Shown here in pieces: positions 867 through 63,400 of a DNA stretch of 64,000 bases; position 1 is the stretch's first letter; every line of letters begins with the position of its first letter. The DNA lies in the IMG/VR virus record IMGVR_UViG_3300017963_000024, positions 1-64,000 of that record; one strand, written 5' to 3'. The translations under genes and the position numbers were made by a program. The DNA is from a virus. The notes under the pieces were generated by a model. That model saw only the letters and a program-made list of their open reading frames with translations. It was not told the DNA's origin and made no database searches.

Positions 867-1186
867 ATGAACTCACCATTATCGTCAACCTTATCCTGAA
901 AGTTGTTGTTTCTCTCGCAGCTTTAGGGGGACTGATAGGGCTTGGGGCATGGATTGCCAAAGCTTCTCGTTGGGCTGGAAAGCTCGACGAGAAGTTGGAT
1001 GCGGGATTCAAGCAGAACGCTAAGGATCACAGAGAACTGAAGGAAAGCTTGGACGAGCATTCGGCAACCCTAGCGTCCCACGCCCTTGAGTTGACGGAGC
1101 ATCGGGTGAGAATTACAGGGCTTGAGAAGCAAATCTACAAGCAAGAGTGTGTTCGGAATGGGAAACATCAAGAGGAACCAAAATGA
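863..1186 (+). CDS. membrane protein with coiled coil, holin-like
   Basis: N-terminal TM, heptad repeats, directly before endolysin. Confidence 0.45.
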   Translation: MNELTIIVNLILKVVVSLAALGGLIGLGAWIAKASRWAGKLDEKLDAGFKQNAKDHRELKESLDEHSATLASHALELTEHRVRITGLEKQIYKQECVRNGKHQEEPK

Positions 1187-1632
1187 TCCCAAAACGAATC
1201 GTTCTCCACAACAGCGACACGAAGGATAGTGGAAGTGTCTCGTGGGGGGCAATCAGATGGTGGCACACAGACGGAAAGCACCATTGGCCCGACATCGGAT
1301 ACCACTTCGGGATCGAGGAAATCGAAGATGCTGCGAAGCGGGCTTATATCGAAGTGCTGCTCGGGCGTCTCCCCAACGTTCAAGGAGCACACACGAAGGG
1401 CCACAACTTCGACACACTCGGAATCTGCTTCGTGGGAAGCTTCGAGCAGGAACCACCGCCTCCCGTGAATTTGGCGAAGGGTCTCGATCTGGTTGAGTGG
1501 TTATGCCGAGTTCACGACATTCACCCATCGAATGTTTTCGGGCATCGCGAGCTAGCGAGCTACAAAACTTGCCCCGGATCACAATTTGATTTGGATGCTT
1601 TTCGTTTCGAGCTACTCAAACGTTTGGGCTGA
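1183..1632 (+). CDS. endolysin, N-acetylmuramoyl-L-alanine amidase (Amidase_2, T7 lysozyme-like)
   Basis: IVLHNS, DIGYHFGI, GAHTKGHN, GICFVG, GHREL...KTCPG motifs; likely start at ATG 1183. Confidence 0.92.
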   Translation: MIPKRIVLHNSDTKDSGSVSWGAIRWWHTDGKHHWPDIGYHFGIEEIEDAAKRAYIEVLLGRLPNVQGAHTKGHNFDTLGICFVGSFEQEPPPPVNLAKGLDLVEWLCRVHDIHPSNVFGHRELASYKTCPGSQFDLDAFRFELLKRLG

Positions 1633-2801
1633 TGGGACACTACGGCACATTCAACTACGGAAGCGGTGTTCACTACGGAGACGGCCAAGGAGCAGTTGTT
1701 CCTGCGTGGACTCCTCTTGGTGGCGGAAACCATCTCGGCAAAGATTGGATTATTACCAAAGATACCGTCGTTGCTGGAGTTCACTACAACATTGGGCATT
1801 TCGAGGTTGTAGATGGCGTCGTTGCGATCATCAAGGAGTATGATGGCGCGGCCTATGGTGGTTTCGAGGTGCTATGCAAAAGCGCAAGGGTTCTCGGGTC
1901 TATCTCGGGTAGCTTGTCGGGGCATCCCGGTGGCCCCGGTGGAGGGGGAGGAGGTGGAGCCGGGTCGGTGTCGGCGGGGGTCGGCGGCTTAGGCGGCGTG
2001 GCCCCTGTCGGCCCCGATGGTGAGGCTGGACAGGATGGGGCGGTCGGAGCTTCGGCTTTGGGCGGAGAAGGGGGTGACGGTGCTGCCGGGACGGGGGCCT
2101 ATGGGGGCAATTTGGGCGCAGGAGGCGCGTCCGGGGGTGGAGATGGGGGTTCGGCTACGGACGGCGGCTACGCGGTCGCAGGGGGCCAAGGAGACGTGTC
2201 TACGGACGAATCCTTGAACATGGGCAGTGGTGGTGGAGGAGGTGGAGGGGGCGGTGGTCAAAACACCGTTCCATCTACTATAACGGCTGGCGGCGGTGGT
2301 GCTGGTGGCTCCTCCGGGGGGAGCGGGGGAGCCATCGTCAAGATCGAGGCAATCGGGGGGATCATCGTCTCAGGGAAGATCTTCAGCCACGGAGGATTCT
2401 CAGTGGGCGGCAAGGATGGCAAGGACGCCATCCAAGGCGGCTCGTGTATCTTGGGCTACCCTGTGGGCCGTAAGGGGGGTGATGGGGGTGCTGGTGGCTC
2501 ACCTACCGATACGGATGCTCTACCCGGAGTTGGCGGCGAGAGCTTGCCTATCGGGGCAGACCCCGGAGGTGATGCGGGGGTTGGTGGAGACGGGGCAGGG
2601 GGAGGTATCTTGCTGAAGACGGCAGGACCAATTGGACTTGTAATCACAGGTGCGGTAAAAACTTTGGGAGGGATGACAGAAGTGGGCACTGGTGGAACCT
2701 ACAAGAAGTTCTACGCAGAAGGAGAAGACCACACCACAGGAACAGAGGAGGCGGGGAGAATCTATCCGAATAGTTCTCTCACTCAGGGCCATTTGGTATG
2801 A
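1632..2801 (+). CDS. glycine-rich tail or virion protein
   Basis: long GGxGG repeats and GGSGGAIVKI / GAGGGILL motifs typical of phage Gly-rich tail proteins. Confidence 0.65.
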   Translation: MGHYGTFNYGSGVHYGDGQGAVVPAWTPLGGGNHLGKDWIITKDTVVAGVHYNIGHFEVVDGVVAIIKEYDGAAYGGFEVLCKSARVLGSISGSLSGHPGGPGGGGGGGAGSVSAGVGGLGGVAPVGPDGEAGQDGAVGASALGGEGGDGAAGTGAYGGNLGAGGASGGGDGGSATDGGYAVAGGQGDVSTDESLNMGSGGGGGGGGGGQNTVPSTITAGGGGAGGSSGGSGGAIVKIEAIGGIIVSGKIFSHGGFSVGGKDGKDAIQGGSCILGYPVGRKGGDGGAGGSPTDTDALPGVGGESLPIGADPGGDAGVGGDGAGGGILLKTAGPIGLVITGAVKTLGGMTEVGTGGTYKKFYAEGEDHTTGTEEAGRIYPNSSLTQGHLV

Positions 2802-2810
2802 GGGGGAGGA

Positions 2811-3416
2811 TTGAAACACAAATCTTTGTTGGACATCGTAGCGAGTCTCGGAAAGGAGATCAGAAGACCGATGGACAAAATTGAAGTGACACGCGAAGAA
2901 GTTGTGGAGATGTATAACGCACTCCTCAACGCAAAGCTTTTGAGGGGGGACCCTCAGATCACGTATGCCCTTGGAAGGACGAAGCGATCATTGCGCGATC
3001 CGGCTGAGTCGATCACCGAGGGCAACGTCCCCTCTGACGAGTTCAATCAGTTCAACAAGCTTCGGGATGACCTGTGCCAGAAGTTCGCTTTGAAGGACGG
3101 CAAAGGGCGGCCTCTCTCCAGTGGCAATCAGTGGGTCATGGACCCCGACAAGGCCGAGGAGTTCGAGAAAGCCGCCGAAGACCTCAAAGCAAAATACGAG
3201 AAAGCACTCAAAGAAGAGGAAGAGCGGCGCAAGGGCTTCAAAGCTTGGAAACGTGAGAAGATGGACGTAAAGGTCCACAAGGTCAAGCTTTCGGCGCTGA
3301 AGCGAGTCTACAACAAGGAGAAGCCAGAAGAGTCCCTGACGGTTGACCAGATGGACGCACTAGCTCCGATGATTATCGTAGACTTCGACCTCAAAGACGA
3401 AAAGGTTCCCGAGTGA
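2811..3416 (+). CDS. hypothetical charged protein, possibly a tail fibre assembly chaperone
   Basis: K/E-rich helical ORF after the tail gene; alternative start at ATG 2871. Confidence 0.5.
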   Translation: MKHKSLLDIVASLGKEIRRPMDKIEVTREEVVEMYNALLNAKLLRGDPQITYALGRTKRSLRDPAESITEGNVPSDEFNQFNKLRDDLCQKFALKDGKGRPLSSGNQWVMDPDKAEEFEKAAEDLKAKYEKALKEEEERRKGFKAWKREKMDVKVHKVKLSALKRVYNKEKPEESLTVDQMDALAPMIIVDFDLKDEKVPE

Positions 3417-4717
3417 TGGCTCCCGCTACGCAAATGGTTTCGGCCAAGAAAAAGAAGAAAAAGAAGAAGGACAAAGTCAAAGCTTCGGATAATGGGAGGA
3501 ATCTTCGGCTAGAGTGGGTTGATCCCCGCACACTCTCTCCGAATCCGAAGAATTGGCGACGGCATCCAAAGACTCAGGTCGAGTCTGTAGAGGGAGTCAT
3601 CAAAGATGTGGGGTGGGCCGGAACTCTTCTGTTCAACGAAGCGACTGGACGGCTCATTGATGGACATCTCCGAAGAAATCTAGGCTTCAAGGAGGTTCCC
3701 GTTTTGATGGGTAGCTGGACAGAGGAGCAAGAGGCAGAGATTCTAGCGACTCTTGATCCAACAGCCGAGCTTGCTCTGATGAATGAGAAGGCTTTGGCTG
3801 TTGTCATGGCTCAGTCAAAAGCCAAGAGTCCCGCCGTCAAGAGATTATACGATGCCATGCTGAAAGAGAACGAAGGACTTCAGAGGGAAATGGAGTCTTT
3901 GCTCGATCAGCAACTCAGCGATCTTGAAGGCATGGACGACCTCGATCTCGACGAGGGTGATGACTTGACTCCTATCTCAGAAACACCAAACATCTTCTTT
4001 CGAGAAGACGCGGTGTTCTCCTCGACGAACAAGTGGGGATTACCTGATCTCAAAGAGGATATGCTGAGTGAAATCATTCCGACCGAAGTGTTTGGAGGCG
4101 AGTCCATCGAGCAGATTGGTGATCCGTCTCGGTGGTTATTCATGTACGGTAAGGCAAAGTTCACTCCTGAGATGGTACAAGGCGGTGTGCTGGGCTTCTA
4201 CGTTGAAGACGAGAATTTCAACGTGGTGTGGCAAGAAGCTGTTGCGACTGTCGAAAAGCTTTACCGGCTGAATTGGGGTGGGATTATCGCTCCAGACTTC
4301 TCATTATGGGCAGACGATCCACTTGTCGTTCAGCTTTGGAATGTCTATCGGGCAAGGTGGGTTTCTCGATTCTGGCAGGAAGCTGGAATCAAGGTGATCC
4401 CGAACATGGGATGGTCCGACAAGCGAAGCTACGATTTCTGCTTTGACGGGATTCCGAAGAAATGTCCTGTGATTTGCTGTCAGTGCCGTTCCCTCGGACG
4501 GGCGAAAGAGGAGAAAAAGCAGGGTCAAAAAAGTTGGCTCAGAGGATTCATTGAGGGGTGCAAAACGCTTGAACCCGCCAACATTTTGATCTATGGGGGA
4601 ATTGAGCATAGGGCATGGATCGAGAAGGGACTGCCAAAGAAGGGCCTTCCAAAAATCTACTGGCTAGATTCTTGGATGGCAAAACGAAGAGCAGCCAACT
4701 TCAAGATCGGAGACTGA
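3413..4717 (+). CDS. ParB/Srx-like N-terminal domain fused to DUF4417-like domain
   Basis: LSPNPKNWRRH...LIDGHLR (ParB-like); GFYVEDENF, IIAPDFSLW, WNVYRARW, GIKVIPNMGWS, ILIYGG (DUF4417-like). Confidence 0.75.
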   Translation: MMAPATQMVSAKKKKKKKKDKVKASDNGRNLRLEWVDPRTLSPNPKNWRRHPKTQVESVEGVIKDVGWAGTLLFNEATGRLIDGHLRRNLGFKEVPVLMGSWTEEQEAEILATLDPTAELALMNEKALAVVMAQSKAKSPAVKRLYDAMLKENEGLQREMESLLDQQLSDLEGMDDLDLDEGDDLTPISETPNIFFREDAVFSSTNKWGLPDLKEDMLSEIIPTEVFGGESIEQIGDPSRWLFMYGKAKFTPEMVQGGVLGFYVEDENFNVVWQEAVATVEKLYRLNWGGIIAPDFSLWADDPLVVQLWNVYRARWVSRFWQEAGIKVIPNMGWSDKRSYDFCFDGIPKKCPVICCQCRSLGRAKEEKKQGQKSWLRGFIEGCKTLEPANILIYGGIEHRAWIEKGLPKKGLPKIYWLDSWMAKRRAANFKIGD

Positions 4718-4733
4718 AAAGGAGGTGAATCGA

Positions 4734-4874
4734 ATGCGCGCAATCGTAAACCCGAACACTCGGCCCGAAGTTGGAGCCGGGGGCGGCGGTGGCCGTGGAG
4801 GTCGTCGGCGTCGGGGAGCAGGGCTGGCTCGTGCCCTCGGCGGCGTCGGCGGAAGATTCCGTCGAGGCGGCTGA
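4734..4874 (+). CDS. 46-aa Gly/Arg-rich peptide, missing from the ORF track
   Basis: AAGGAGGTG SD at 4719-4727; reads MRAIVNPNTRPEVGAGGGGGRGGRRRRGAGLARALGGVGGRFRRGG*; followed by a terminator. Confidence 0.8.
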   Translation: MRAIVNPNTRPEVGAGGGGGRGGRRRRGAGLARALGGVGGRFRRGG

Positions 4875-4925
4875 GAGCTAGAGTAGTCCTCCAATCCCTC
4901 ACATTCAGCCACCTAGTAGCACAGG

Positions 4926-4963
4926 CGGCCCCGGTCTTACCCACCGGGGCCGTTCTGTTTTTT
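4926..4963 (+). terminator. Rho-independent terminator
   Basis: CGGCCCCGGT / ACCGGGGCCG 10-bp stem followed by TTCTGTTTTTT. Confidence 0.75.
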
Positions 4964-11684: not shown

Positions 11685-11713
11685 TTGACAAGGGAAAAGC
11701 TTTGTGGCATACT
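11685..11713 (+). promoter_or_regulatory. sigma70 promoter with AAGCTT in the spacer
   Basis: TTGACA-17-CATACT with extended TG and an AT-rich UP element. Confidence 0.8.
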
Positions 11714-14445: not shown

Positions 14446-14889
14446 ATGACAAAAAATGAGATCGAGGCATGGGTGCGGGACTTTTGGCAGAGTGTCAGAA
14501 TTAGAGGAGAAAATGATTGTTGGAACTGGAAGTATCCTCTACGGAATGGGTATGGTGTTTGGAGCGGTAAGCCAGCCTCTCGTGTGGCTTGGATGCTTGC
14601 TAATGGCAGAGTTGCTCCAAAAGGAATGTTTGTTTGCCATACGTGCGATAACAAAGCTTGTTGCAATCCAAGACATCTCTACTTAGGAACACCAGCGGAT
14701 AACTCACAAGACATGGTTGAACGTGGTCGAACTCGCCGAGGTAAAATCACACACAGTGGCAAGCAACTTCGTGTGGCTGTTCTTCGTTTGATTGGTACTC
14801 TTCCTCAACGAGACATCGCCCGTCGCTTTGGAGTATCTGAAAGTTATATTAGCCGTATTAAGTCGGGCGACCGATTGAACGGAACTTGA
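14446..14889 (+). CDS. HNH homing endonuclease with C-terminal HTH
   Basis: CWNW, GYG, VCHTCDNKACCNPRHLYLGTPADN; QRDIARRFGVSESYISRI. Confidence 0.9.
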   Translation: MTKNEIEAWVRDFWQSVRIRGENDCWNWKYPLRNGYGVWSGKPASRVAWMLANGRVAPKGMFVCHTCDNKACCNPRHLYLGTPADNSQDMVERGRTRRGKITHSGKQLRVAVLRLIGTLPQRDIARRFGVSESYISRIKSGDRLNGT

Positions 14890-14914
14890 CAAAGCTTTGA
14901 ACTTGTGGGATAAT
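14886..14914 (+). promoter_or_regulatory. sigma70 promoter with AAGCTT in the spacer
   Basis: TTGACA-AAGCTTTGAACTTGTGG-GATAAT. Confidence 0.8.
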
Positions 14915-14965
14915 CCCGACACATTGGGCAAGCCCCCACGGGGGCACAACGAAAGGAGGAGCGAT

Positions 14966-16513
14966 ATGAAAGAGATTCAGGAACTTGTGTTGTCTGCAAG
15001 GAGTGTTTCGACTCCCTTGATAGGAGTCGAGACATCCGATCCAGCAGCGACGATTGCGGCCATCTCAGAGGCAGTCGTCAATGAGGAGGAAGGCGGAGAC
15101 AAGGTCCCTCAGATCGAGTGGGACATCATCCGTGGTTTGGTTGGAAGAAATCAGATCGGACAGAAGGTAGTGGCGAATTTGGCACCCCCGGAAGTGGACA
15201 TTGCTGCCATCTCACAGAATCCTTCGGAAGCGTTGGCACTTCTCCCGAAGGTTCCCGAACAGACAATCGTCTACTTTCACAATGCACAACGTTACTTGAA
15301 CCCACAGCTTCCGGGTAGTGAGGCGGTGGCACAGGGTATCTGGAACTTGAGGGATCAGTTCAAGTCAACATTCAGAACTCTCATTCTTCCCTCACCGATG
15401 TTGCGGCCCCCGGACGAACTGGCACAGGACATCATTGTGTTTAGTGAGCCGCTTCCAGATGACGAAAAGCTTGGAGAGATCGTCGATACTGTGTACGCAG
15501 CAGCGGACTTGGAAGCACCGTCGAATAGAAAGAAAGCCGATACGATATTTGCTCTGAGGGGCTTGGCAGCGTTTCCAGCAGAGCAAGTGACGGCAATGTG
15601 CCTCACCGAAGAGGGAGTCGATCTTGACGATGTGTGGGACAGAAAGCGGACGATGATCGAGCAAACTCGTGGACTAGCATTTCTCCCACGTCGATTCACC
15701 CTCAACGATGTTGGTGGATTGGATCAGATCAAGAAATTCAGTAAGCCGCTGTTTGCTGGGGAGTACCCACCGACTACGGTACTATTCATCGACGAGATCG
15801 AAAAGATGTTCGCTGGAGCGTTCGGCGGCGTGGCTGATTCTTCTGGTGTCAGTCAGGATCAGTTGGGGGTGATGCTTAGAGCGATGGAGGACAACAACTG
15901 GTCTGGCTGCATCTTCGTAGGTCCTCCGGGGACTGCAAAGTCGATGGTGGCACAGGCGATGGGCAACACCTACGGCAAACCAGTGATCGCAATGGATCTT
16001 GGAGCGGTCAAAGGCTCTCTCGTTGGTCAGTCGGAAGCTCAGATGAGAGGCATGATGAAAACCGTCTACGGAATCGGTGGTGATGGTGTGTTCATTGTGG
16101 CAACGTGCAACAGGCTGGAAAGCTTGCCACCGGAATTGCGGAGACGGTTCAAGTACGGCATCTGGTACTTCGACATTCCTTCAGAGGACGAGCGAAAGCC
16201 TATTTGGAAGTTGAACCTCAAAAGGTACAACCTGAAGAACAGCACTCTTCCAAACGATCACAACTGGACGGGTGCGGAGATCAGAAATGTTTGTGAACTC
16301 TCGTGGAGGTTGGGCATCTCTCTCGAAGAGGCTTCCAACTACATCGTCCCCGTGATGAAGAGCGATCCTGAAGCAGTCAATCGTCTCAGGAAGATGGCGG
16401 ATGGAAAGTTCTTGTCGGCAAGCTATGAAGGAACCTACGTGAGGCTGGACGTGGAGAAATCAACCAAGAAGGGGCGAAAGATTCGGGTAAAGGGACCGAA
16501 GACTCGTCAGTAG
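14966..16513 (+). CDS. Ycf46-like AAA+ ATPase with permuted motif order
   Basis: DVGGLDQIK, LFIDEIEK, GPPGTAKS, SLVGQSE, VATCN, LPPELRRRF; strong SD before ATG 14966. Confidence 0.85.
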   Translation: MKEIQELVLSARSVSTPLIGVETSDPAATIAAISEAVVNEEEGGDKVPQIEWDIIRGLVGRNQIGQKVVANLAPPEVDIAAISQNPSEALALLPKVPEQTIVYFHNAQRYLNPQLPGSEAVAQGIWNLRDQFKSTFRTLILPSPMLRPPDELAQDIIVFSEPLPDDEKLGEIVDTVYAAADLEAPSNRKKADTIFALRGLAAFPAEQVTAMCLTEEGVDLDDVWDRKRTMIEQTRGLAFLPRRFTLNDVGGLDQIKKFSKPLFAGEYPPTTVLFIDEIEKMFAGAFGGVADSSGVSQDQLGVMLRAMEDNNWSGCIFVGPPGTAKSMVAQAMGNTYGKPVIAMDLGAVKGSLVGQSEAQMRGMMKTVYGIGGDGVFIVATCNRLESLPPELRRRFKYGIWYFDIPSEDERKPIWKLNLKRYNLKNSTLPNDHNWTGAEIRNVCELSWRLGISLEEASNYIVPVMKSDPEAVNRLRKMADGKFLSASYEGTYVRLDVEKSTKKGRKIRVKGPKTRQ

Positions 16514-32920: not shown

Positions 32921-33475
32921 GTGGCAGTGTTCAAAAGGAAAAACCGGGCAAGTCTCTCTGCGAACCAAAGCGTTCAAGACCGATTTCTAGCCAAGGTCAG
33001 CAAAGAATCTAGGGAAGATGGTTGCTGGATTTGGACAGCGTCAATCCGAACGGATGGCTACGGTCAGTTTGGTTGGAAGGGGCGGATCATCGGTGCTCAC
33101 AAGTTTTCGTATATGCTCTTCGTTGGTGACGTTCCCGATCCACTTGTGGTGTGCCACAGATGCGACAATCAACTCTGCGTGAACCCGGACCACCTGTTTC
33201 TCGATACTCAGTCAGAAAACGTTTGGGATATGCGGAGAAAAAATAGGAACTTCAGGGCGACGGGTAACATGAACGGCATGAGACGACGACCAGACCGCGT
33301 GGCGAAAGGAGAAAAGCATGGACAGGCCAAGCTGACAAGAGAGACTGTGAAGGCGATCAAGCGTTTTGCAAAGCTTGGGTGGAAGCCGAAGGAGATAGCG
33401 GATCACTTCGGAGTCGGCCCCTCAACTATTCGTGATGTCCTCACGGGTAAGACATGGAAAGGAGACACAGCATGA
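32921..33475 (+). CDS. HNH homing endonuclease with HTH
   Basis: CWIWT, DGYGQF, VCHRCDNQLCVNPDHLFLDTQSEN, IADHFGVGPSTI. Confidence 0.9.
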   Translation: MAVFKRKNRASLSANQSVQDRFLAKVSKESREDGCWIWTASIRTDGYGQFGWKGRIIGAHKFSYMLFVGDVPDPLVVCHRCDNQLCVNPDHLFLDTQSENVWDMRRKNRNFRATGNMNGMRRRPDRVAKGEKHGQAKLTRETVKAIKRFAKLGWKPKEIADHFGVGPSTIRDVLTGKTWKGDTA

Positions 33476-38241: not shown

Positions 38242-38270
38242 TTGACAAAGCTTTGATAATGTGAGACAAT
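38242..38270 (+). promoter_or_regulatory. sigma70 promoter with AAGCTT in the spacer
   Basis: TTGACA-AAGCTTTGATAATGTGA-GACAAT. Confidence 0.75.
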
Positions 38271-39622: not shown

Positions 39623-39651
39623 TTGACAAAGCTTTGGGCATTTGGTACAAT
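39623..39651 (+). promoter_or_regulatory. sigma70 promoter with AAGCTT in the spacer
   Basis: TTGACA-AAGCTTTGGGCATTTGG-TACAAT. Confidence 0.85.
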
Positions 39652-40340: not shown

Positions 40341-40369
40341 TTGACAAAGCTTTCCTCCCTTGCTATAAT
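40341..40369 (+). promoter_or_regulatory. consensus sigma70 promoter with AAGCTT in the spacer
   Basis: TTGACA-AAGCTTTCCTCCCTTGC-TATAAT. Confidence 0.92.
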
Positions 40370-41467: not shown

Positions 41468-41496
41468 TTGACAAAGCTTCAAAGCTTTGCTATACT
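41468..41496 (+). promoter_or_regulatory. sigma70 promoter with two AAGCTT in the spacer
   Basis: TTGACA-AAGCTTCAAAGCTTTGC-TATACT. Confidence 0.9.
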
Positions 41497-42358: not shown

Positions 42359-42387
42359 TTGACACTCCTTCAAAGCTTTGCTATACT
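42359..42387 (+). promoter_or_regulatory. sigma70 promoter with AAGCTT in the spacer
   Basis: TTGACA-CTCCTTCAAAGCTTTGC-TATACT. Confidence 0.9.
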
Positions 42388-43049: not shown

Positions 43050-43077
43050 TTGACAAAGCTTTTAGATTTGCTATAAT
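43050..43077 (+). promoter_or_regulatory. sigma70 promoter with AAGCTT in the spacer
   Basis: TTGACA-AAGCTTTTAGATTTGC-TATAAT (16-nt spacer). Confidence 0.8.
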
Positions 43078-43689: not shown

Positions 43690-44610
43690 GATGCTGAAGA
43701 CGATGCTGGGCGGACTGGTGAAGGAGGGGCTGAAACAAACGAGTGAGTTCAGGAATCGCCCCTCCGGGTTGTATGACAGGAACGAGGAAGAATTGACGTT
43801 CGAGGAGGTTTTCAAACACCTCCTCGATGCGCTAAGAAAAGGATAATCTGCGAGCGGTGAGACGGATACCTTCCCCCGTCACCCGTGTCGAGGGGCAGTC
43901 TTTCGGGACTGCCCCTTTTTTTGTCCTCGTCGCTCTGTGGACGAGCGGTGCATTTGACTTGCTAGCGGCGCGCCTTACGCTTCGTGGAGGTCGTTCAGTC
44001 AAAGCTTTCCTGAAAACGCGCGGTGCAGCTTTTAACGGCAGACTCGACGCTTTTGGACCCCCCCCGAACAGAAGTTCGTACCCCCTGACCGACCCCCTGA
44101 CCGGGGGTGTCAAAGCTTTGACGGTGCCGTGAAGTGTCACATGGTCAAAGTTTGTCACTTTCCAAAAGTCAAAGCTTTTCGACCACTTAGGGGGGAAGGT
44201 TCAAGGAAATTCGACCTTTGTGTCAAAGCTTTGACGGTAGTGCGAACAAACGTTCACGATAGGACGTCAAGGACCGTGCCAAAAGCTTTGAACCTTCAAA
44301 GCTTTGACGTTGGCACGGTCCTAGCTACCATTCCGAACCATGATCGGTTCACGTTCCCCCCCTTCGGTTCCCCTTCGGTCAAGCCTTCCCCTTGGAAGGT
44401 GAGGAACCAAAGGGGATTCGGCACCTTCCAAGGTGAGCAGTCAGGGATTGCAGAATAATCGTGGCTCCTGATTGGCCGAACGAAGGTTCGGTCACGTCAC
44501 TCCAGTTCTGATGATCGAAACCTTGGAAGGGGTGACAGGGAAGGGGAACCCTTCCTACCGAATAAGAACCCAAAAGCTTTGAACCTACAACGATCAAGGG
44601 AAGGTGAGAA

Positions 44611-45663
44611 ATGGCTACTGACAAAACTGAGTTTGTTACTCCTGAAGGGTTTGTTTTCTACGTTCCTACCTCTGATGCCGATGTAATCATGCAACAGAGG
44701 AAGGAAGGCCGTCGAACCCTTCTCGAAATTCTAGAAGGAAGGGGATATGAGCCTTCCGAAGTGACCGAACCTTCCGAACCCTTGGAAGTGGTCAAAGGCT
44801 CCGAGCCTGAACTTCCGATTGAACTTACAGACGTGGTCAACGAACCGAAGGTTCAAACGAAGCCACTTCGGAGAACAATCGTTGACCGTTCCCGTGAGTC
44901 AAAGCTTGAAGAACTGACAAGCCTTCTGACTCAACAGAACGAAGCTTTGAAAGCTCAGTTGCTTGAACTGAGGAAAGAAGCCAACGGGAACGAACCTGAA
45001 GCCAACGAAGCCACTTCGGAAACGGTCAACGGTCCTGTCACTCCTGAAATGGTCGAAGCCTTTTTCGTTTCCATTCTGGCAACAATCGGAAGGGATGTTA
45101 AAGCCTTCGTTTCCACGTTCGTTCGGTTCACCTTCAAGCTTGTTTCCTTCACCTTCAAGCTTGCCACTTCCCCCCTTTGGGTTCCTATCAAGTGGCTTGT
45201 CCGGTTCGGATTGTACCTGAACGGAGTTTCCCCTTCGGGAACGGTCAAGCCTTCAGGAACCGTCAAGGCTTCGGTTCCTTCCGAACCTTCCGAACCTTCG
45301 GGAACGAAGGGAACGAAGGGAACGAAGGGAACGAAGGGAACGAAGGCAAAGTCAAAGCTTATCCCTGAAGCCACTTCCTACAAGGCTTTGACCGAACGAA
45401 TCCGAACGAACTTTGGTTACGGTGCCGACCGTTGGCTTTGTGGCTGGATTGCAAACGAAGGTGAGGAACCGGGAGACGTTCCCGAACTTTCCAAAAGCCC
45501 TAGGATTGCAGACACGTTGGCTTTCCTTCATGCAATCAAGGAACGTGTTTTCAACGGGAACGAAGCTTTGACCGTCAAGTGGTACAACGAACACGTTCGG
45601 CAAGACAACGAATGGAAGGTTCGGAAGGGGAAGGCTTCAGCTAACGTCTACATTTCAGAGTGA
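44611..45663 (+). CDS. hypothetical protein with coiled coil, amphipathic/hydrophobic segment and GTK repeats
   Basis: 350-aa ORF; GGGAAGGTGAG SD; downstream hairpin near 45672-45703. Confidence 0.7.
   Translation: MATDKTEFVTPEGFVFYVPTSDADVIMQQRKEGRRTLLEILEGRGYEPSEVTEPSEPLEVVKGSEPELPIELTDVVNEPKVQTKPLRRTIVDRSRESKLEELTSLLTQQNEALKAQLLELRKEANGNEPEANEATSETVNGPVTPEMVEAFFVSILATIGRDVKAFVSTFVRFTFKLVSFTFKLATSPLWVPIKWLVRFGLYLNGVSPSGTVKPSGTVKASVPSEPSEPSGTKGTKGTKGTKGTKAKSKLIPEATSYKALTERIRTNFGYGADRWLCGWIANEGEEPGDVPELSKSPRIADTLAFLHAIKERVFNGNEALTVKWYNEHVRQDNEWKVRKGKASANVYISE
45301..45345. repeat. 9-bp tandem repeat GGAACGAAG, five copies, encoding GTK
   Basis: read directly from the sequence. Confidence 0.9.
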
Positions 45664-45721
45664 AGCCAACGAAGGGGGGAACGTTCCTCAGTTCCCCCCT
45701 TTCCTGAAGGGAAGGTGAGGA

Positions 45722-45892
45722 ATGAACATCAGGAAGGCAAGGGGAAAGCTTTACAGGCTTGCAAGGGTACTCGGTGACGTTCAGGCAATGCTAGACGGTC
45801 CCGAAGCCTACGTGAAGAGGCTTGCAAGGAAACAAGCCTTGAAGGCTTCGGGAAAGTCGATCAACCATGCAATCAGAAGGAAGGGAAGGTGA
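45722..45892 (+). CDS. 56-aa basic protein (not in the ORF track), paralog of 39090..39290
   Basis: MNIRKARGKLYRLARVLGDVQAMLDGPEAYVKRLARKQALK...; same island SD. Confidence 0.7.
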   Translation: MNIRKARGKLYRLARVLGDVQAMLDGPEAYVKRLARKQALKASGKSINHAIRRKGR

Positions 45893-45896
45893 GGAA

Positions 45897-46196
45897 ATGG
45901 AAATGAACTTCAGAAGGAACTACAACGATCAAAGCTTGATAGTTCCCCTTTGTGGACTGTGCAACGAACGGACAACAATCAACGAATTAACCGTGGCTAC
46001 AGTGCAAAGGGAAGGTGAGGAACCGAAGGTGAAGGCCGTGTGCTTCGATTGCTTAGGAGCCTACTCCGACTCTGAAGTGTCGAAGATCACTCGGACGTCA
46101 ATCGTGAAGGTTCGACCTTTTCCCGTTCGGGAAACTGAAGGGGGGGAACTGAAGGAACGTTCCTTCGGTAGAGTTCACCGATTCAACGTGTACTGA
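45897..46196 (+). CDS. small Zn-finger protein
   Basis: CGLC...CFDC; island SD. Confidence 0.6.
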   Translation: MEMNFRRNYNDQSLIVPLCGLCNERTTINELTVATVQREGEEPKVKAVCFDCLGAYSDSEVSKITRTSIVKVRPFPVRETEGGELKERSFGRVHRFNVY

Positions 46197-46212
46197 CAAA
46201 GCTTGAACAACG

Positions 46213-46252
46213 AAGGGGGGGAAGGGGGGAACGTTCCCCTTCCCCCCTTTTT
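46213..46252 (+). terminator. Rho-independent terminator
   Basis: AGGGGGGAAGGGGG / CCCCTTCCCCCTTTTT hairpin plus T run. Confidence 0.7.
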
Positions 46253-46297
46253 CTGGCTTCGTTCCTTCAATCAAACGTCATTCTAAAAGCTTTGATA

Positions 46298-46484
46298 TGC
46301 AACGAACGTGCCACTTCCGAACCGTCAAAGCTTTGACACGTTCGGGAACCGTTGGCACAAAGCTTGCAAGCCAACAGACGTTTGGCCTAGTCAAACGATT
46401 CCCCTTCAAGGAACGTGCCAAGTGGCTTCCCCTTGCCAAGTAAAGCTTTGACAAAAAGTGGCACCGTAGCAACGAACGTGCCAA
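46298..46484. promoter_or_regulatory. cluster of sigma54 (-24/-12)-like boxes
   Basis: TGGCACGTTCGTTGCA (- 46298-46313), TTGGCACAAAGCTTGCA (+ 46352-46368), TTGGCACGTTCCTTGAA (- 46405-46421), TTGGCACGTTCGTTGCT (- 46468-46484). Confidence 0.65.
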
Positions 46485-46888
46485 GGCCAGTAACAAAATT
46501 TGACCATGCACGGCTAGCACGAAGCCATTTTTGGCTGACCGACCCCTGACCGGGGACCCCTCTCCGCACGAATTTTCGTTCGTACCCCCTCTTTAGGACC
46601 CCCTCGAAAATATAGCGGAAAAATCTATCAAAACTTGGAAATTTGGCGGAAAAATTTATCAAGTTTTGAGGACTGCCTTAATGCGAGCGGGGGGAAATGG
46701 TGAAATGTGTGAATTGAAAAAAGTTTCGTTGTGCAGTGGAAGATTTCCGCTCGGCGTGCTAGGGTCCCATGTGTAAGCTGGCAGTAGGTCGAATAGCTAG
46801 AAAGGAGTATGCACGATGGAAGATGCCGAAGTGGTCGAACTGGTCATGGCCCTGTCCCGCGAGATCGGGTGGAGGAACGAGGAGGAGT

Positions 46889-56207: not shown

Positions 56208-56484
56208 CGACGTTGATTTCAAGTTTACTTGGAAGATTCTCTCTTGGCCTGAACAGGAAGAAGGCTTTCTAACAAAGCTTTTTGATCCTGATCGCCTTGG
56301 ATTTCCTCTCGATCCTGACGAGAAGATTACTTCCGAGCGTATTAGAAGAGCCTTGGAATCTCCTCAATTCCGAGATGAGTTCAGACGGAACTTGAATGAG
56401 ATTGTGGAGGAAACGGCTAGAAAGATATTTCGAGAAGCTTTGGAAAAGGGTTTTACGGCCATTGAGCTAGAGCCAACACCATGA
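56197..56484 (+). CDS. hypothetical protein
   Basis: overlaps both neighbouring genes. Confidence 0.5.
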   Translation: MATNDVDFKFTWKILSWPEQEEGFLTKLFDPDRLGFPLDPDEKITSERIRRALESPQFRDEFRRNLNEIVEETARKIFREALEKGFTAIELEPTP

Positions 56485-58925
56485 GTGAAGTAGCCTTTGA
56501 TCCGCTTTCGGTAATCGACGACAGCACTCCTTGTGCTTTTAGTCGGTTTCCTCAGACGGACGACGAACTTTGGGAGTTCGTGGCAACGGTTTGGGGCGTT
56601 GAGATCCCAAGGAAAAAGATTTGCCCCCAGCACTGTGCTCCGTTCGATGCTTTTGCCGATGCCTTCTTCTGTAAAGCGGAAAACGCGATCTGGCTCGCAA
56701 GCCGTGGGTTGGGTGGCAAGAGTTTCCTTCTTGCTACGCTGGGCCTCACTGAAGCAGTTTGTCTTGGGGCGACGGCAACGGTCCTTGGTGGATCAGGCGC
56801 ACAATCACAAAACGTTCACAGGTATATGCAAGATATGTGGAGTTACCCTGCCGCGCCACGTCAATTGCTTGCGGAGGACCCCACGAAAATGAGGACCGTT
56901 CTTAAGAACGGTGCCTATGTTCAAGCTTTGCTGGCTTCATCCACCAGTGTTCGTGGCCCTCACCCTGTAAGGCTTCGGTGCGACGAGTGCCTCACTGGAG
57001 ATTCACTCGTTCTAATGGCTGATGGTTCTAAGAAACGTTTGGACAGGGTAGAACCCTCAGACAAGGTGGTTACTTTCTATAGGGGTTGTTTATGTGAGGG
57101 TGTTGTGTTAGCCTCTGAGTATAAGGGTGTCAGAGAGACACTAAAGCTTAGAACGGAGGCTGGTAATGAAATCGTCTGCACAAAAGAACATCCGGTCCTC
57201 GGAGAAAGTGGTTGGCGAGAAGCGTCTACCTTTGCAGCGGGGGATTACATCTGGCTATCCGATAACTCTGCCGACGTACTCCCACCGGGACGTGAAGAAG
57301 TGTCTCGACTGTGGGAAAGCTTTGAAGCACAAGATGGCTCGGCTGGTGACGGGGTACTGCAAAGAGTGTCTAACGGAGAAGGTCAAGAAACCGAAGTTCT
57401 GCGAAGAATGCGGGACTCAGGTTGGAAGCCAATCGAAGCTTTGTCGGCCCTGTTGCTTCAAACGAAGGAAGAAGTCAAAAGCTTTTTGCAAGGATTGTGG
57501 AACCGAATTGCGTTTAGCTTCTACGAAGCGTTGTCGCCCCTGCCACCTCAAGTTCATGTCCTCGGAACGCATGGTTTCGAGGATGTCGGCTTCCAGAGCT
57601 ACGGCTATGAAAAACAGGGAGGAGAGATCGAGAGCCGAAACACAGGCGGCGGAGCTTCTTCGACTGTTCAAGATAAACTTTCGAGAGCAAGTTCCAGCCT
57701 CCCGTTATATTCTGGACTTCGTTCTGGACGACTACAAGGTTGTGATCGAGGTACACGGGGCGTATTGGCACGACAGGCCCGCTGCGAAGAAAAGGGATCA
57801 AGCAAAAAAGAAAGCTTTGGAGAAGAGGGGTTGGCAGGTTCTTTTCTGGCGAACCGAAAAGCTCCACCTGTGGTGGCTCGATCTCGTGTCGCCTCCATTC
57901 AACAAGCTGGGAGAAGTGGAGTCTATGATATAAGAGTTTCTCCTGGCAAGAGCTTCGTCGCTAACGGTATCATTGTTCATAACTGTGACGAGATGAAGCT
58001 CGACATTCTCGATGCGGCTCTAGGCCAGCCGATGTCGAAGGACGGAATTCCCGCTCAAACAGTAATGTCCTCGACGCACCACTATCCTGACGGTACGGTC
58101 ACAGAGCTTCTGAATCGAGCCAAAGAACGTGGGATGCCCGTCTATAACTGGTGCTACCGGGAAAGTATGGCCGGGGGCTGGCTTTCCCCTGCCGATGTGG
58201 AAGCCGCCCGTGCTCGTGTTCCACTGGCAATGTGGGATGTTGAGTTTGAGCTTCAGGAGCCGAGTCCTGAAGGACGCGCCATCCAGCCACAAGCTGTAGA
58301 GTGGACTTTCGATCAAAGCTTGGGATACTTTGAAGGCCAAGCGAATGAAAAGATCGTGCTTGAACCCCCACAGGAGGGGGCTAAGTACGTGACCGGGGCA
58401 GATTGGGCGAAGGAGAGTGACTGGACAGTCATCATTACGTTCCGAATTGACGTTACTCCTTGGAAGCTTGTCATGTTCGAGCGGCTTGGCCGACGCCCTT
58501 GGCCGGAAATGGTTGAAAAATTCAATGACAGGCTTACTCGCTACCGAGGTGTCGGCGTCCACGATGCAACAGGGCTGGGAAATGTTGTGGATGACTTCGT
58601 GACCAACAGAGCCGCCAGAGGGGAAGTTTTGGTGGGAAAGAATAGGGCTGAAATTTTCTCTGAATACGTTGCAGCACTGGAAAACCGTGAAGTGGTTGCA
58701 CCGAGAATTGACTTCATGTATGCAGAGCACAAGTATTGCACGGTGGATGATTTGTGGGGGAGTGGGCACCCGCCTGATTCCTTTGTTGCTGGTGCGCTGG
58801 CATGGCGAGGCAAACGTTTCAGCCAGTCTACGGGAACCGTAAGGTCCATTGTGTCCCACCCGAAGTGGAAAGAGCGGTCGGACGAGAGGATCGCACGTCG
58901 GCTTGAACCTTGGAAGTTCGACTAG
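56481..58925 (+). CDS. terL: terminase large subunit containing an intein
   Basis: SRGLGGKS Walker A; RLRCDE|CDEM Walker B split by the intein; GADWAK..DWT, VHDATGLG, HPPDSF nuclease motifs. Confidence 0.92.
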   Translation: MSEVAFDPLSVIDDSTPCAFSRFPQTDDELWEFVATVWGVEIPRKKICPQHCAPFDAFADAFFCKAENAIWLASRGLGGKSFLLATLGLTEAVCLGATATVLGGSGAQSQNVHRYMQDMWSYPAAPRQLLAEDPTKMRTVLKNGAYVQALLASSTSVRGPHPVRLRCDECLTGDSLVLMADGSKKRLDRVEPSDKVVTFYRGCLCEGVVLASEYKGVRETLKLRTEAGNEIVCTKEHPVLGESGWREASTFAAGDYIWLSDNSADVLPPGREEVSRLWESFEAQDGSAGDGVLQRVSNGEGQETEVLRRMRDSGWKPIEALSALLLQTKEEVKSFLQGLWNRIAFSFYEALSPLPPQVHVLGTHGFEDVGFQSYGYEKQGGEIESRNTGGGASSTVQDKLSRASSSLPLYSGLRSGRLQGCDRGTRGVLARQARCEEKGSSKKESFGEEGLAGSFLANRKAPPVVARSRVASIQQAGRSGVYDIRVSPGKSFVANGIIVHNCDEMKLDILDAALGQPMSKDGIPAQTVMSSTHHYPDGTVTELLNRAKERGMPVYNWCYRESMAGGWLSPADVEAARARVPLAMWDVEFELQEPSPEGRAIQPQAVEWTFDQSLGYFEGQANEKIVLEPPQEGAKYVTGADWAKESDWTVIITFRIDVTPWKLVMFERLGRRPWPEMVEKFNDRLTRYRGVGVHDATGLGNVVDDFVTNRAARGEVLVGKNRAEIFSEYVAALENREVVAPRIDFMYAEHKYCTVDDLWGSGHPPDSFVAGALAWRGKRFSQSTGTVRSIVSHPKWKERSDERIARRLEPWKFD
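56988..57983 (+). mobile_element. intein (332 aa) inserted in the TerL Walker B motif
   Basis: block A CLTGDSLVLMADG, block B CTKEHPV, block F GVYDIRV, block G FVANGIIVHN followed by Cys. Confidence 0.92.
57166..57933 (+). CDS. Zn-finger + DUF559/Vsr-like endonuclease overprinted in the +1 frame inside the intein
   Basis: GGAGG SD 6 nt before ATG; three CxxC...CxxC units; FREQVP..YILDF...VIEVHGAYWH...KRDQAKKKALEKRGWQVL. Confidence 0.85.
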   Translation: MKSSAQKNIRSSEKVVGEKRLPLQRGITSGYPITLPTYSHRDVKKCLDCGKALKHKMARLVTGYCKECLTEKVKKPKFCEECGTQVGSQSKLCRPCCFKRRKKSKAFCKDCGTELRLASTKRCRPCHLKFMSSERMVSRMSASRATAMKNREERSRAETQAAELLRLFKINFREQVPASRYILDFVLDDYKVVIEVHGAYWHDRPAAKKRDQAKKKALEKRGWQVLFWRTEKLHLWWLDLVSPPFNKLGEVESMI

Positions 58926-62454: not shown

Positions 62455-62794
62455 GATGGCTGAAGAAATTACAGAGAGTGCTGCCCTCAGTAAGTTGAGG
62501 GAGGTCAAAGACATCAACCGTCTGTTTGTTGACGTGCGCTGCCGCAAGTGCCGCAAGCTTTTCTTCAAATGGTTACCCGTGCAGCAGATCATGTTTGAGG
62601 TCAAGTGCAGTCGGTGTGGGCACATCGAAACTCGGAATATGTGCGGCATATTGACGCCGGACTTTTTTCCAGAAAGGGGTTGCAAAAAACAAAACAGCGG
62701 ATTAAAAGTTGGGACCGATGAGGAAGAAACTGAAGTGTCTGAGCACCCTTCAAGAGTGCCATCGAATGAAGCCATTCAAACTTTTGGAGGGTGA
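62444..62794 (+). CDS. Com-like zinc-ribbon protein
   Basis: DVRCRKCRKLF...EVKCSRCG. Confidence 0.65.
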   Translation: MPPKMAEEITESAALSKLREVKDINRLFVDVRCRKCRKLFFKWLPVQQIMFEVKCSRCGHIETRNMCGILTPDFFPERGCKKQNSGLKVGTDEEETEVSEHPSRVPSNEAIQTFGG

Positions 62795-62797
62795 ACC

Positions 62798-63400
62798 ATG
62801 AGTCTGTTCAGCTTTACCGTTGCAGACAAGCCGGAGACGGAACTCGAAAAGCTCCAAGTCGCCCGCGTGGATGCTGTCGAGGACCCGGCAACAGGCCGAT
62901 CTTTCATCATTACGAAATCGGAAGACACGGCTGAACTGCGGGCGAATATCGAGAAGCTTGCGAAGAAGACCGACGAGGTACTTCGCAAGATTCACAAGTC
63001 GAGTCCAAAGCTTTCGGACGAGGCAGTTGTGACTTCTCTCAACGAACTTTCAACGCTACTCGGTACGGAGAAAGACGTGAAGTTCGAGTACGCGAAGAAG
63101 GAAGAGGGTGATAAGCCCTCCGATGCTCCGGCAACGGAGGCCACGAAACCCGAAGACGACAAGGACAAGGTGGAGACACCGGAAACTCCGGCAACAGAAG
63201 CCGCCAAGTCCGCTCCCACTGTGGAGGAGATCGCCGATGCCGTCATCAAGAAGCTCGAAACAAAGCTTCAGAAGGACGACGGCAAGGAGAAGAGCAAGCC
63301 AGCTTCCCAGCAAGTTCAGGCGGGCGACGATGTGAAGAAGTCGAAGAAGCCCGATTTGGGAGAGGGCCTGTTCGAGAGTGTCGTCTTCTCGCAAGAGTAG
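62798..63400 (+). CDS. capsid scaffold or protease-related protein
   Basis: RVDAVEDPATGRSFIITK, charged linker, directly before the capsid gene. Confidence 0.65.
   Translation: MSLFSFTVADKPETELEKLQVARVDAVEDPATGRSFIITKSEDTAELRANIEKLAKKTDEVLRKIHKSSPKLSDEAVVTSLNELSTLLGTEKDVKFEYAKKEEGDKPSDAPATEATKPEDDKDKVETPETPATEAAKSAPTVEEIADAVIKKLETKLQKDDGKEKSKPASQQVQAGDDVKKSKKPDLGEGLFESVVFSQE

Follow-up and report, generated by a model that had tools for sequence, protein, structure and literature searches.

An iterated AAGCTT palindrome in a phage genome largely stripped of other six-base-pair palindromes

The DNA analysed here (the window) is a stretch of 64,000 nucleotides from the IMG/VR virus record IMGVR_UViG_3300017963_000024, and the complete phage genome comprises 86,832 bp. 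The + strand of the window encodes a ParB-like/DUF4417 protein (3413–4717; DUF4417 match with E 6.2e-40, phrog_940 with 1.7e-50, and ParB-like PHROGs matching residues 30–180), whose family is labelled 'nuclease' in PHROGs, an AAA ATPase (14897–16513), and an orphan protein of 350 amino acids (44611–45663) for which no family was found and the Atlas model is poor. Scattered over the window are 159 copies of AAGCTT (960–63268, unstranded), the HindIII site. No tRNA genes were found in the phage genome and no close phage record for it; the endolysin and AAA ATPase homologues carried no useful taxon names for host assignment, and the Atlas taxa of the RecA-like protein are viral.

AAGCTT is the top-ranking hexamer, and its count in the window, where copies start between 960 (first) and 63263 (last), compares with a mononucleotide expectation of 13.6. 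The complete genome contains 212 copies (2.44 per kb), against 18.9, 27.5, and 56.7 expected under mononucleotide, Markov-1, and Markov-2 models, respectively. An earlier note on this DNA had counted about 36 copies in the first 15 kb, which is the exact number, and had described a roughly 10-fold excess continuing to the end of the window; the density does persist, with 6–20 copies in every full 5-kb bin of the genome (4 in the final partial bin), and the excess over about 19 to 57 expected copies, depending on the model, is stronger than stated. The core is sharp, as AAGCTT is enriched 7.7-fold vs at most 1.8-fold for hexamers with one mismatch. Across the whole genome (n = 212), copies have a mean gap of 405 bp and are spaced slightly more evenly than by chance (largest gap 1710 bp vs a simulated mean of 2421 bp, P = 0.023), this evenness being weak (gap CV 0.90, P = 0.08).

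Based on 114 simple gene calls made in this analysis, 168 of the 212 copies lie inside genes, distributed over frame 0 (n = 80), frame 1 (n = 66), and frame 2 (n = 22), and 44 are intergenic or at gene edges, corresponding to densities of 2.29 per kb in coding and 3.23 per kb in non-coding DNA. The 168 genic copies compare with 42.4 ± 5.3 after shuffling synonymous codons, 30.4 ± 5.3 after shuffling codon order, and 121.4 ± 5.4 in a dicodon-preserving shuffle. The last of these leaves frame 0 fixed by construction, so that only frames 1 and 2 are free to vary, and both retain an excess (66 observed vs 30.6 and 22 vs 12.1, respectively). Between genes, a dinucleotide shuffle yields 4.4 ± 2.3 copies vs 42 observed. 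Lysine–leucine dipeptides are spelled AAG-CTT in 80 of 142 cases (23.6 expected), while the dipeptide itself is not enriched (142 vs 126.6 expected). A codon, dipeptide, or dicodon artefact is ruled out by the distribution over frames and by all four shuffles: selection for AAGCTT acts at the DNA level, and codon bias does not account for the excess. This agrees with the earlier note, which had observed sites in different frames and between genes, considered codon bias insufficient, and named the dicodon-preserving shuffle as one test that could overturn the claim; the excess outlasts this shuffle as well as the synonymous and codon-order ones.

AAGCTT forms the centre of a longer, symmetric word, (C)(A)AAGCTT(T)(G). 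Among the 212 sites, position -1 is an A in 135, position -2 a C in 88, position +6 a T in 110, and position +7 a G in 87, and the context (C)AAAGCTT(T), recognized by eye in the earlier note, is thus real. The same flank preferences are found in frames 0, 1, and 2, and they peak between genes (81% A, 52% C, 61% T, and 56% G). CAAA-N2-TTTG occurs 34 times vs about 2.4 expected (summed Markov-1), with a GC centre in just nine of these. Single-nucleotide changes are tolerated most at the outer positions (10.5-fold), followed by the centre (3.7-fold) and the two inner A/T positions (1.0- to 1.7-fold), and one-nucleotide variants of AAAGCTTT number 117 at the outer positions vs 9, 17, and 49 at the inner ones. 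Recognition of AAGCTT looks symmetric and graded. Six of the nine perfect 10-mers fall within 40–50 kb. Left and right extended flanks occur together at 9 sites, fewer than the 18.6 predicted under independence (P = 0.0015), and AAACTT/AAGTTT are raised (103 vs 57.6 expected). VSP-type repair bias was rejected, as no AAGCTT neighbour is depleted, and so was a dispersed mobile mini-repeat, as the flanks beyond ±2 are near random and the top motif-containing 10-mer has only 16 copies. A directional, Chi- or KOPS-like polarity was likewise rejected, since the asymmetric forms CAAAGCTT and AAGCTTTG show no switch along the genome.

Most other six-bp palindromes have been removed from this genome. 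The complete sequence lacks 40 of the 64; in coding sequences, 43 are absent vs 0.1 in synonymous shuffles, and palindromes other than AAGCTT total 150 vs 888 ± 27. CCWGG, GRGCYC, RCATGY, GGTCTC, CCTNAGG, GCTNAGC, CCANNNNNTGG, and CAGNNNCTG are also absent or nearly so. The broad purge is limited to contiguous six-bp palindromes (47 of the 56 with an expectation of at least 10), and the few depleted palindromes with a spacer are known restriction words or contain a purged word, which rules out a generic structural avoidance of palindromes. This DNA-level shortage of known Type II words resembles the restriction-site avoidance that passages of a review (PMC6286503) describe as a phage strategy. 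It differs from the usual case in its unusual extent and in that one classic site, AAGCTT, is about 10-fold up. The tolerance of 212 HindIII-type sites in a genome purged to this degree suggests that they are never cut. Near-total loss of palindromes and the multiplication of one of them within a single genome show strong selection in both directions on six-bp words.

A subset of the copies holds a fixed place in promoters. We found 12 strong sigma70-like promoters on the + strand, eight of which contain AAGCTT in the spacer (binomial P = 5.6e-8), directly after the -35 box TTGACA in six and elsewhere in the spacer in two more. At 14886–14914, the promoter reads TTGACA-AAGCTTTG-N9-GATAAT, with AAGCTT abutting the -35 box. 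Those at 38242–38270 and 39623–39651 carry TTGACAAAGCTTTG, those at 40341–40369 and 43050–43077 carry TTGACAAAGCTTTC and TTGACAAAGCTTTT, respectively, each with the -10 box TATAAT, and the promoter at 41468–41496 has AAGCTT twice within the spacer, at offsets 6 and 14. CAAAGCTTTG adjoins the -10 box at 42359–42387, and AAGCTT lies mid-spacer at 11685–11713. The highest site density is reached in an island at 44000–46650 (+ strand; 20 sites, 7.55 per kb), which encodes the orphan 350-aa protein. Palindromes of 12–14 bp stand on both sides of this 2.6-kb island, as established from the sequence read together with the site list: to the left lies a cluster of extended palindromes, (G)TCAAAGCTTTGA(C), with six AAGCTT copies (44002–44304), and to the right another with five, including GTCAAAGCTTTGAC (46199–46448). 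The geometry of the promoter and island sites is consistent with that of operators.

The trait follows the phage lineage. In the closest relative (65% identity for PolA, 60% for the ParB-like/DUF4417 protein, and 55% for the portal), AAGCTT ranks first or second among palindromes with a weaker excess, and AAAGCTTT is present in 10 and 5 copies vs 2.6 and 1.3 expected. Iterated palindromes also occur in unrelated phage contigs, one of which contains 192 copies of TCCGGA, while in another a word nearly identical to the AAGCTT-centred one, CAAACGTTTG, is found 57 times vs 0.10 expected, at a regular 1.1-kb spacing (CV 0.39). AACGTT is iterated in two near-complete phage genomes, both with N6_N4 methyltransferases. 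Each of the iterated cores across phages (AAGCTT, TCCGGA, AACGTT, and AGTACT) is a classic Type II specificity. In the TCCGGA and CAAACGTTTG contigs, both incomplete, a search for two methyltransferase families found none. Scanning IMG/VR for the promoter word TTGACAAAGCTTTG-N10-ANNNT returned 52 stretches, none of them AAGCTT-rich (maximum 1.3 per kb). On the cellular side, portal relatives with 41–46% identity were identified in three MAGs (Dehalococcoidia, Chloroflexota, and Thermogutta), which contain 0, 0, and 4 copies of CAAAGCTTTG; among 401 sampled Chloroflexota genomes, the top count is 37 copies in 6.5 Mb, and the five richest have about 0.33 AAGCTT per kb vs 2.44 per kb in the phage. 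Neither these 401 genomes nor the three MAGs show a comparable AAGCTT excess.

A protein reading the word was sought in the phage genome itself. When all six frames of the complete genome were searched with PF01555, PF02086, PF00145, and PF02384, no classical DNA methyltransferase was detected, and Pfam scans of 84 ORFs (77 in the window and 7 past its end) identified no AAGCTT reader; in these ORFs, helix-turn-helix domains are restricted to a replication-initiator-like protein and two HNH endonucleases. A scan of 20 small early ORFs found no DNA-binding domain. The AAA ATPase was the sole protein matched in all four other fetched contigs with iterated palindromes (G000 tblastn), and iterated palindromes are found at 7 of 80 AAA ATPase loci vs 0 of 73 (Fisher P = 0.014). 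This association is tentative because the AAA loci have the greater mean length (18.5 kb vs 15.9 and 12.2 kb) and the seven loci are not independent, G405 and G406 (L166 and L190) having near-identical motif profiles.

We tentatively propose, as quite possible though short of probable, that AAGCTT is a selected recognition word, (C)(A)AAGCTT(T)(G), which a dimeric, sequence-specific DNA-binding protein would recognize on double-stranded DNA. Selection would spread the word over the whole chromosome, at about one copy per 405 bp and mainly by synonymous codon choice, while restriction pressure would strip nearly all other six-bp palindromes. The strongest versions may act as operators, abutting or inside the spacers of early sigma70-type promoters, and the 12–14-bp palindromes around the island may do the same. 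Through the roughly 190 weaker genic copies, this protein might recognize the chromosome along its entire length, either loading onto or coating the DNA as ParB, KorB, or Noc do, or using the copies as a tag that sets phage DNA apart from other DNA; this role is conjectural, since transcription-factor sites are normally not ten-fold enriched in genes. We infer the existence of the reader, its identity, and the part played by the dispersed copies. The earlier note had proposed either a modification target, possibly of ParB-DUF4417, or a binding site for a phage genome-coating protein. Its view of the word as a selected, HIP1-like element and as a binding site has gained support, the latter from flanks that are symmetric in each frame class, the fixed position beside the -35 box, and the enrichment of CAAA-N2-TTTG whatever its centre, while the proposed modifier has not. 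Several observations count against a binding protein: the Pfam scans identified no reader, the core is as sharp as an enzyme site would be, the Type II-like cores of several phages would equally suit a methyltransferase or restriction-type reader, and the deficit of joint flanks is not predicted by a simple cooperative dimer model.

ParB, KorB, and Noc systems use a handful to about 70 sites of 13–16 bp, whereas the present word of 6–10 bp occurs in 212 copies, mainly inside genes. The sites of these systems are read by a dimeric protein able to act at a distance (for KorB, see PMC11790492), and a ParB-like protein is encoded here, but no helix-turn-helix was detected in it, and Pfam ParB_N has zero matches in the six frames of the phage genome. 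Like parS, the OB sites of KorB (plasmid RK2), and the Noc sites, AAGCTT is a palindrome present in multiple copies on one replicon, with some copies adjacent to promoters. Dispersal of many copies over a phage genome, beyond promoters, is also shared with a class of phage repressor-type sites, the stoperators. In the cluster A mycobacteriophages L5 and D29, these are asymmetric, oriented 13-mers, intergenic and numbering about 20–30 per genome. The AAGCTT word, in contrast, is palindromic with 168 of 212 copies in genes, and D29 has no iterated palindrome.

The main alternative, which we regard as somewhat unlikely, is an element like HIP1 of cyanobacteria: a host methyltransferase, orphan or belonging to a restriction-modification system, would methylate AAGCTT, and the excess would stem from methylation-linked repair bias, as in Elhai's HIP1 model, or from a methylation-dependent function such as strand marking or promoter timing, with the phage inheriting or copying the host trait. 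As described in PMC4390886 and PMC13756078, HIP1 (GCGATCGC) is a short word, many-fold over-frequent, in all frames and between genes, and other cyanobacterial lineages carry alternate palindromes, just as different phages do here. Elhai also reports that one-nucleotide variants of HIP1 gather at the outer positions, which the 117 outer variants of AAAGCTTT parallel, and that a methyltransferase specific for the iterated word or its core accompanies HIP1 (Elhai 2015). The resemblance suggested in the earlier note is one in kind, extending to the frames, the intergenic copies, and the outer-position variants. A classic six-bp Type II core, other such cores in other phages, the apparently uncut HindIII-type sites, and the N6_N4 methyltransferases of both AACGTT phages fit this alternative. 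Yet AAGCTT sits in a virus and not a cell, has an A/T-flanked six-bp core unlike the GC-rich HIP1 octamer, stands in a genome from which nearly all other palindromes have been purged, and holds a fixed promoter place. No member of four methyltransferase Pfam families was found in the complete genome, nor of two in the incomplete TCCGGA and CAAACGTTTG contigs. Furthermore, repair bias predicts depleted neighbours, whereas AAACTT/AAGTTT are raised, and the enriched CAAA-N2-TTTG forms with other centres would be invisible to an AAGCTT-specific enzyme. The missing excess in the 401 Chloroflexota genomes and three MAGs also speaks against it, weakly, since the true host may lie outside these genomes.

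It appears improbable that the phage imitates a word by which a motif-rich host recognizes self (a tag for DNA uptake, a Chi-like tag, or one that exempts from defence) and so passes as self. Dispersed, fairly even copies in all frames agree with such a tag, and a palindrome would presumably work from either end of a linear genome, but the surveyed Chloroflexota and MAGs include no motif-rich host, and mimicry predicts neither the fixed place in promoters nor the operator-like clusters. We know of no uptake or Chi word that is palindromic. Modification or cutting of AAGCTT by the ParB-like/DUF4417 protein is very improbable. The gene is intact, and fusions of ParB folds with methyltransferases are described in the literature as frequent in phages, but the two phages examined among the 513 phage records with DUF4417 homologues, D29 and Javan394, lack an iterated palindrome, although Javan394 carries a full-length ParB-DUF4417 fusion. 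In the four other contigs with iterated palindromes, tblastn with the protein gave no hit at E ≤ 1e-4, and no solved structural relative of it was found. Modification by this protein, as put forward in the earlier note, is thus unsupported. This protein may still be a binder, if a weak candidate; in the closest relative it is retained (60% identity), along with a weaker form of the motif. Finally, a by-product of composition, be it a bias in codons, dipeptides, or dicodons or a side effect of the purge, is negligible in our judgement: AAG, CTT, and GCT are common codons and a Markov-4 model expects 145 of the 159 window sites, but its pentamers already contain the motif, the excess appears in three frames, persists in both free frames of the dicodon-preserving shuffle, and peaks between genes, and the remaining tolerated palindromes reach merely 0.6–1.8 times the mononucleotide expectation.

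The iterated palindromes in other phage contigs, one of them regularly spaced, suggest a wider phenomenon. A broader idea, which on balance we doubt, is that some tailed phages might each have an identity word of their own, a short palindrome that differs between phages and is placed in hundreds of copies through synonymous codons, by which a phage protein would tell the phage's DNA from that of the host or of competitors. Words that could be viewed in this way are AAGCTT here, TCCGGA (192 copies), and the quasi-periodic CAAACGTTTG (57 copies, 1.1-kb spacing). If true, such a word would serve protection, silencing, organization, or packaging, and would be the viral equivalent of HIP1, uptake sequences, and parS. 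Highly iterated palindromes have resisted explanation for three decades, and to our knowledge almost all described cases are cyanobacterial. In our limited literature search, neither an AAGCTT excess nor a hyper-abundant phage palindrome had been described before, and the wider phenomenon seems little noticed in print; simply counting k-mers across virus collections could map it. An 87-kb phage with 212 copies, about a hundred genes, no recognizable methyltransferase, and copies fixed in early promoters offers a far smaller system for asking what reads such a word.

AAGCTT, the HindIII site, is the top-ranking hexamer of the window, with 159 copies. The complete phage genome (86,832 bp, of which the window covers the first 64 kb) holds 212 copies, compared to 18.9 expected under a mononucleotide, 27.5 under a Markov-1, and 56.7 under a Markov-2 model; as the expectation varies with the model, each figure applies to the model named. 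The earlier note had counted about 36 sites in the first 15 kb by eye, which is exactly the number present, and the genome-wide enrichment it proposed is borne out. Also as described there, sites occur in different reading frames and between genes: 80 copies lie in frame 0, 66 in frame 1, 22 in frame 2, and 44 in intergenic or gene-edge positions, with a higher density outside genes (3.23 per kb) than within them (2.29 per kb). The word barely alters the amino-acid sequence. K-L dipeptides number 142 (126.6 expected), and 80 of them are spelled AAG-CTT (23.6 expected). In coding sequences, the 168 copies compare to 42.4 ± 5.3 after a synonymous-codon shuffle, 30.4 ± 5.3 after a codon-order shuffle, and 121.4 ± 5.4 after a dicodon-preserving shuffle, which holds frame 0 constant by construction. 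The earlier note had named loss of the enrichment under this last shuffle as a refutation, but the excess persists in the frames left free (66 vs. 30.6 in frame 1 and 22 vs. 12.1 in frame 2) and is thus not refuted. Intergenic DNA carries 42 copies, whereas dinucleotide-shuffled versions of it carry 4.4 ± 2.3.

The source virus is a tailed phage. The ends of its record share a 123-bp terminal overlap; in IMG/VR it falls into the class with direct terminal repeats, with a CheckV completeness estimate of 100%. Matches to Pfam and PHROGs reveal genes for replication and recombination that form a module (helicase, DnaD-like initiator, DnaA-like loader, DnaB, primase, family A polymerase, UDG-like protein, SSB, RecA, and SbcCD) as well as an intein-bearing large terminase, a portal, a protease, and a GTA-like tail module. 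According to our own simple, heuristic gene caller, 106 of the 114 genes are located on the + strand. The GC content is 52%, the complete genome encodes no tRNA genes, and the amino-acid usage resembles that of a mesophile (IVYWREL 0.391). The intein in the large terminase (56481-58925) matches Intein_splicing (E 4.6e-10), and two HNH_3 endonuclease paralogues with C-terminal HTH domains are encoded amid the recombination genes (30851-31453 and 32921-33475).

No less striking than the AAGCTT excess is the purge of the other six-bp palindromes, among which AAGCTT is the only one to be multiplied. In the complete genome, 40 of the 64 have zero copies, and those other than AAGCTT total 186 vs. 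about 1307 expected. Within coding sequences, 43 of the 64 are missing vs. 0.1 in synonymous shuffles, and the non-AAGCTT palindromes sum to 150 vs. 888 ± 27. Also affected are CCWGG (4 vs. 187 expected), GRGCYC (0 vs. 96), RCATGY (0 vs. 82), GGTCTC (1 vs. 45), and CCTNAGG, GCTNAGC, CCANNNNNTGG, and CAGNNNCTG (0 vs. 22 each), while 4-bp palindromes escape (TCGA 586 and GATC 459 vs. 332 expected each). Of the contiguous hexamer palindromes with an expectation of at least 10, 47/56 fall under 0.2x; AACGTT, TTGCAA, GAATTC, CAATTG, AAATTT, GCTAGC, and TAGCTA are tolerated at 0.6-1.8x. Few spacered palindromes are depleted, and these are known restriction words or contain a purged word. Since the broad depletion is confined to contiguous hexamers and few spacered palindromes are affected, the purge bears the mark of numerous actual restriction enzymes acting as selective agents. 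The alternative that dyad symmetry is avoided for structural reasons is rejected, as spacered palindromes are mostly undepleted.

AAGCTT is itself the core of a longer symmetric word, (C)(A)AAGCTT(T)(G). Among the 212 copies, A is found at -1 in 135, C at -2 in 88, T at +6 in 110, and G at +7 in 87, a preference seen in every frame class and peaking between genes (81% A, 52% C, 61% T, and 56% G). AAAGCTTT has 64 copies vs. 2.2 expected. How well its one-letter variants are tolerated depends on the position: enrichment is 10.5x if the outer pair is changed, 3.7x if the central GC is, and only 1.0-1.7x for changes at the two inner A/T positions. The fall from the core is sharp, with one-mismatch hexamers of AAGCTT enriched at most 1.8x and none depleted. 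The gapped form CAAA-N2-TTTG occurs 34 times vs. about 2.4 expected (summed Markov-1 expectations), with a GC centre in 9 of the 34 copies, and the half-sites are therefore enriched independently. The CA extension on the left and the TG extension on the right are found together in nine copies, i.e. more rarely than the 18.6 expected by chance (Fisher P 0.0015), and six of these perfect 10-mers lie within 40-50 kb.

AAGCTT falls within the spacer of 8/12 strong sigma70-like sites on the + strand (binomial P 5.6e-8), in six of these eight immediately 3' of TTGACA. An island of 2.65 kb (44.0-46.65 kb, + strand) carries 7.55 copies per kb vs. 1.8-2.5 elsewhere; both its sides bear extended copies of 12-14 bp, (G)TCAAAGCTTTGA(C), and it encodes an orphan protein of 350 aa. 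Outside the island, copies occur alike in the early, replication, and structural modules. Over the genome as a whole, the spacing of the word departs from random only slightly, towards evenness (the largest gap is 1710 bp, and simulations average 2421, P 0.023; spacing CV 0.90, P 0.08).

These features are best explained by a word that is read on duplex DNA by a putative dimeric protein, because the flanks are symmetric and graded, the half-sites are enriched independently of the centre, and the placement at promoters and the island resembles that of operators. The strong copies at promoters and around the island would then act in an operator-like way, and the roughly 190 genic copies may serve as sites for loading or coating, like those of ParB, KorB, or Noc, or, alternatively, as a tag by which the phage marks its DNA.

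The chief alternative explanation is a host-supplied element tied to a methyltransferase, similar to HIP1, the highly iterated palindrome of cyanobacteria. HIP1 is the nearest described phenomenon to the phage AAGCTT excess, of which no earlier report was found in the literature searched. Such an element would account for the sharp, Type II-like core, for cores differing between phages, and for the tolerance of 212 HindIII-type sites by a restriction-purged genome. Furthermore, variants of the AAGCTT word are biased to the outer positions, as Elhai reports for the one-nucleotide variants of HIP1. However, neither six-frame searches for the four main families across the whole phage genome nor Pfam scans of 84 ORFs detected a DNA methyltransferase, no neighbour word of AAGCTT is depleted, and sites with a variant centre are enriched.

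A further suggestion of the earlier note, that a ParB-DUF4417 protein may modify AAGCTT, is unsupported. The protein in question (3413-4717, + strand) contains a DUF4417 domain (Pfam), matches the 'nuclease' family phrog_940, and has a ParB-like N-terminus according to PHROGs. Pfam ParB_N does not match it, and no solved structural relative was found. Of 513 phage records with DUF4417 homologues, the two examined (D29 and Javan394, the latter with a full-length ParB-like/DUF4417 fusion) have no iterated palindrome, and a preprint on the ParB-CTPase fold lists DUF4417 among phage-enriched fusions of unknown function; together, these points leave the modification-enzyme idea without support. As a binder of AAGCTT, the protein is a possible candidate.

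Among relatives, portal homologues share at most 55% identity, and the portal-derived loci (55 from IMG/VR and 3 from MAGs) lack an AAGCTT excess over mononucleotide expectations, except for one with a mild excess (L003, 12 vs. 2.4). In a sister phage, a large part of the replication module is conserved (identities of 65% for the polymerase, 60% for DnaB, 60% for the ParB-like/DUF4417 protein, and 55% for RecA). In its DNA, AAGCTT is the first or second commonest palindrome (40 copies over 44.2 kb and 29 over 29.7 kb, or 3.4-3.8x what a mononucleotide model predicts), AAAGCTTT has 10 and 5 copies vs. 2.6 and 1.3 expected, CCWGG is nearly gone (1 vs. 72 and 3 vs. 52), and TTCGAA is common. Judging from these counts, the sister lineage possesses the trait at lower strength, and it has been amplified in the studied phage. 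A 10.7-kb contig from the sister phage's sample (L001, IMGVR_UViG_3300037524_001295) contains 8-mers such as TGGCCCGT, GTGGCCCG, and AGGGTGGC in 18-23 copies, which may derive from a single longer repeat, from a tandem repeat, or from a CRISPR-like array. In the search for a host, none of the 401 Chloroflexota genomes and 3 MAGs sampled showed a comparable AAGCTT excess. Five Chloroflexota genomes of 5.8-6.8 Mb (G147, G102, G226, G051, and G192) carry 29-37 copies of CAAAGCTTTG vs. 1-2 of a reversed control word, with AAGCTT at merely about 0.33 per kb.

Iterated palindromes were also found among 80 IMG/VR loci retrieved by homology to the phage's AAA ATPase (14897-16513, + strand). Loci of at least 8 kb were flagged if a palindromic 8-mer reached at least 7 copies and at least 15x expectation or, alternatively, a hexamer reached at least 15 copies and at least 5x. 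This applied to 7/80 loci of the ATPase set, 0/40 of the portal set, and 0/33 of a promoter-pattern scan (7/80 vs. 0/73, Fisher P 0.014), and whole contigs confirm genome-wide iterated palindromes in other phages. The contig G408 (IMGVR_UViG_3300025536_000016, loci L198-L201; 63.3 kb, GC 0.40) has 192 copies of TCCGGA vs. 8.9 (mononucleotide) or 31.7 (Markov-1) expected, evenly along the contig and in all three frames, with 180 in coding sequences, where synonymous shuffling leaves 54 ± 5.5; a search of this record, estimated to be just 59% complete, yielded neither an N6_N4 nor a C5 methyltransferase. In the 64.1-kb contig G404 (IMGVR_UViG_3300028388_003135, loci L202-L205), CAAACGTTTG, which differs from the word of the studied phage solely in the central dinucleotide, has 57 perfect copies vs. 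0.10 expected, 21 of them lengthened to CCAAACGTTTGG. The copies are regularly spaced (mean 1106 bp, CV 0.39, reached in 0/5000 simulations), and one adjoins a sub-threshold ParB_N match (14595-14843). Two other contigs, G405 and G406, contain 68 and 67 copies of AACGTT, respectively, flanked by GGA...TCC.

When the gene calls of the studied phage were compared to these four contigs by tblastn, the AAA ATPase was the sole protein matching all four (37-40% identity); the remaining matches were three weak ones of 23-30% identity, each to a single contig. A link between iterated palindromes and this protein, a member of the classical AAA clade (phrog_8638), is tentative, because the ATPase loci have a greater mean length, some of them are interrelated, and the ATPase has no known function in phages. 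That other phage contigs carry words of their own adds to the interest of the AAGCTT finding.
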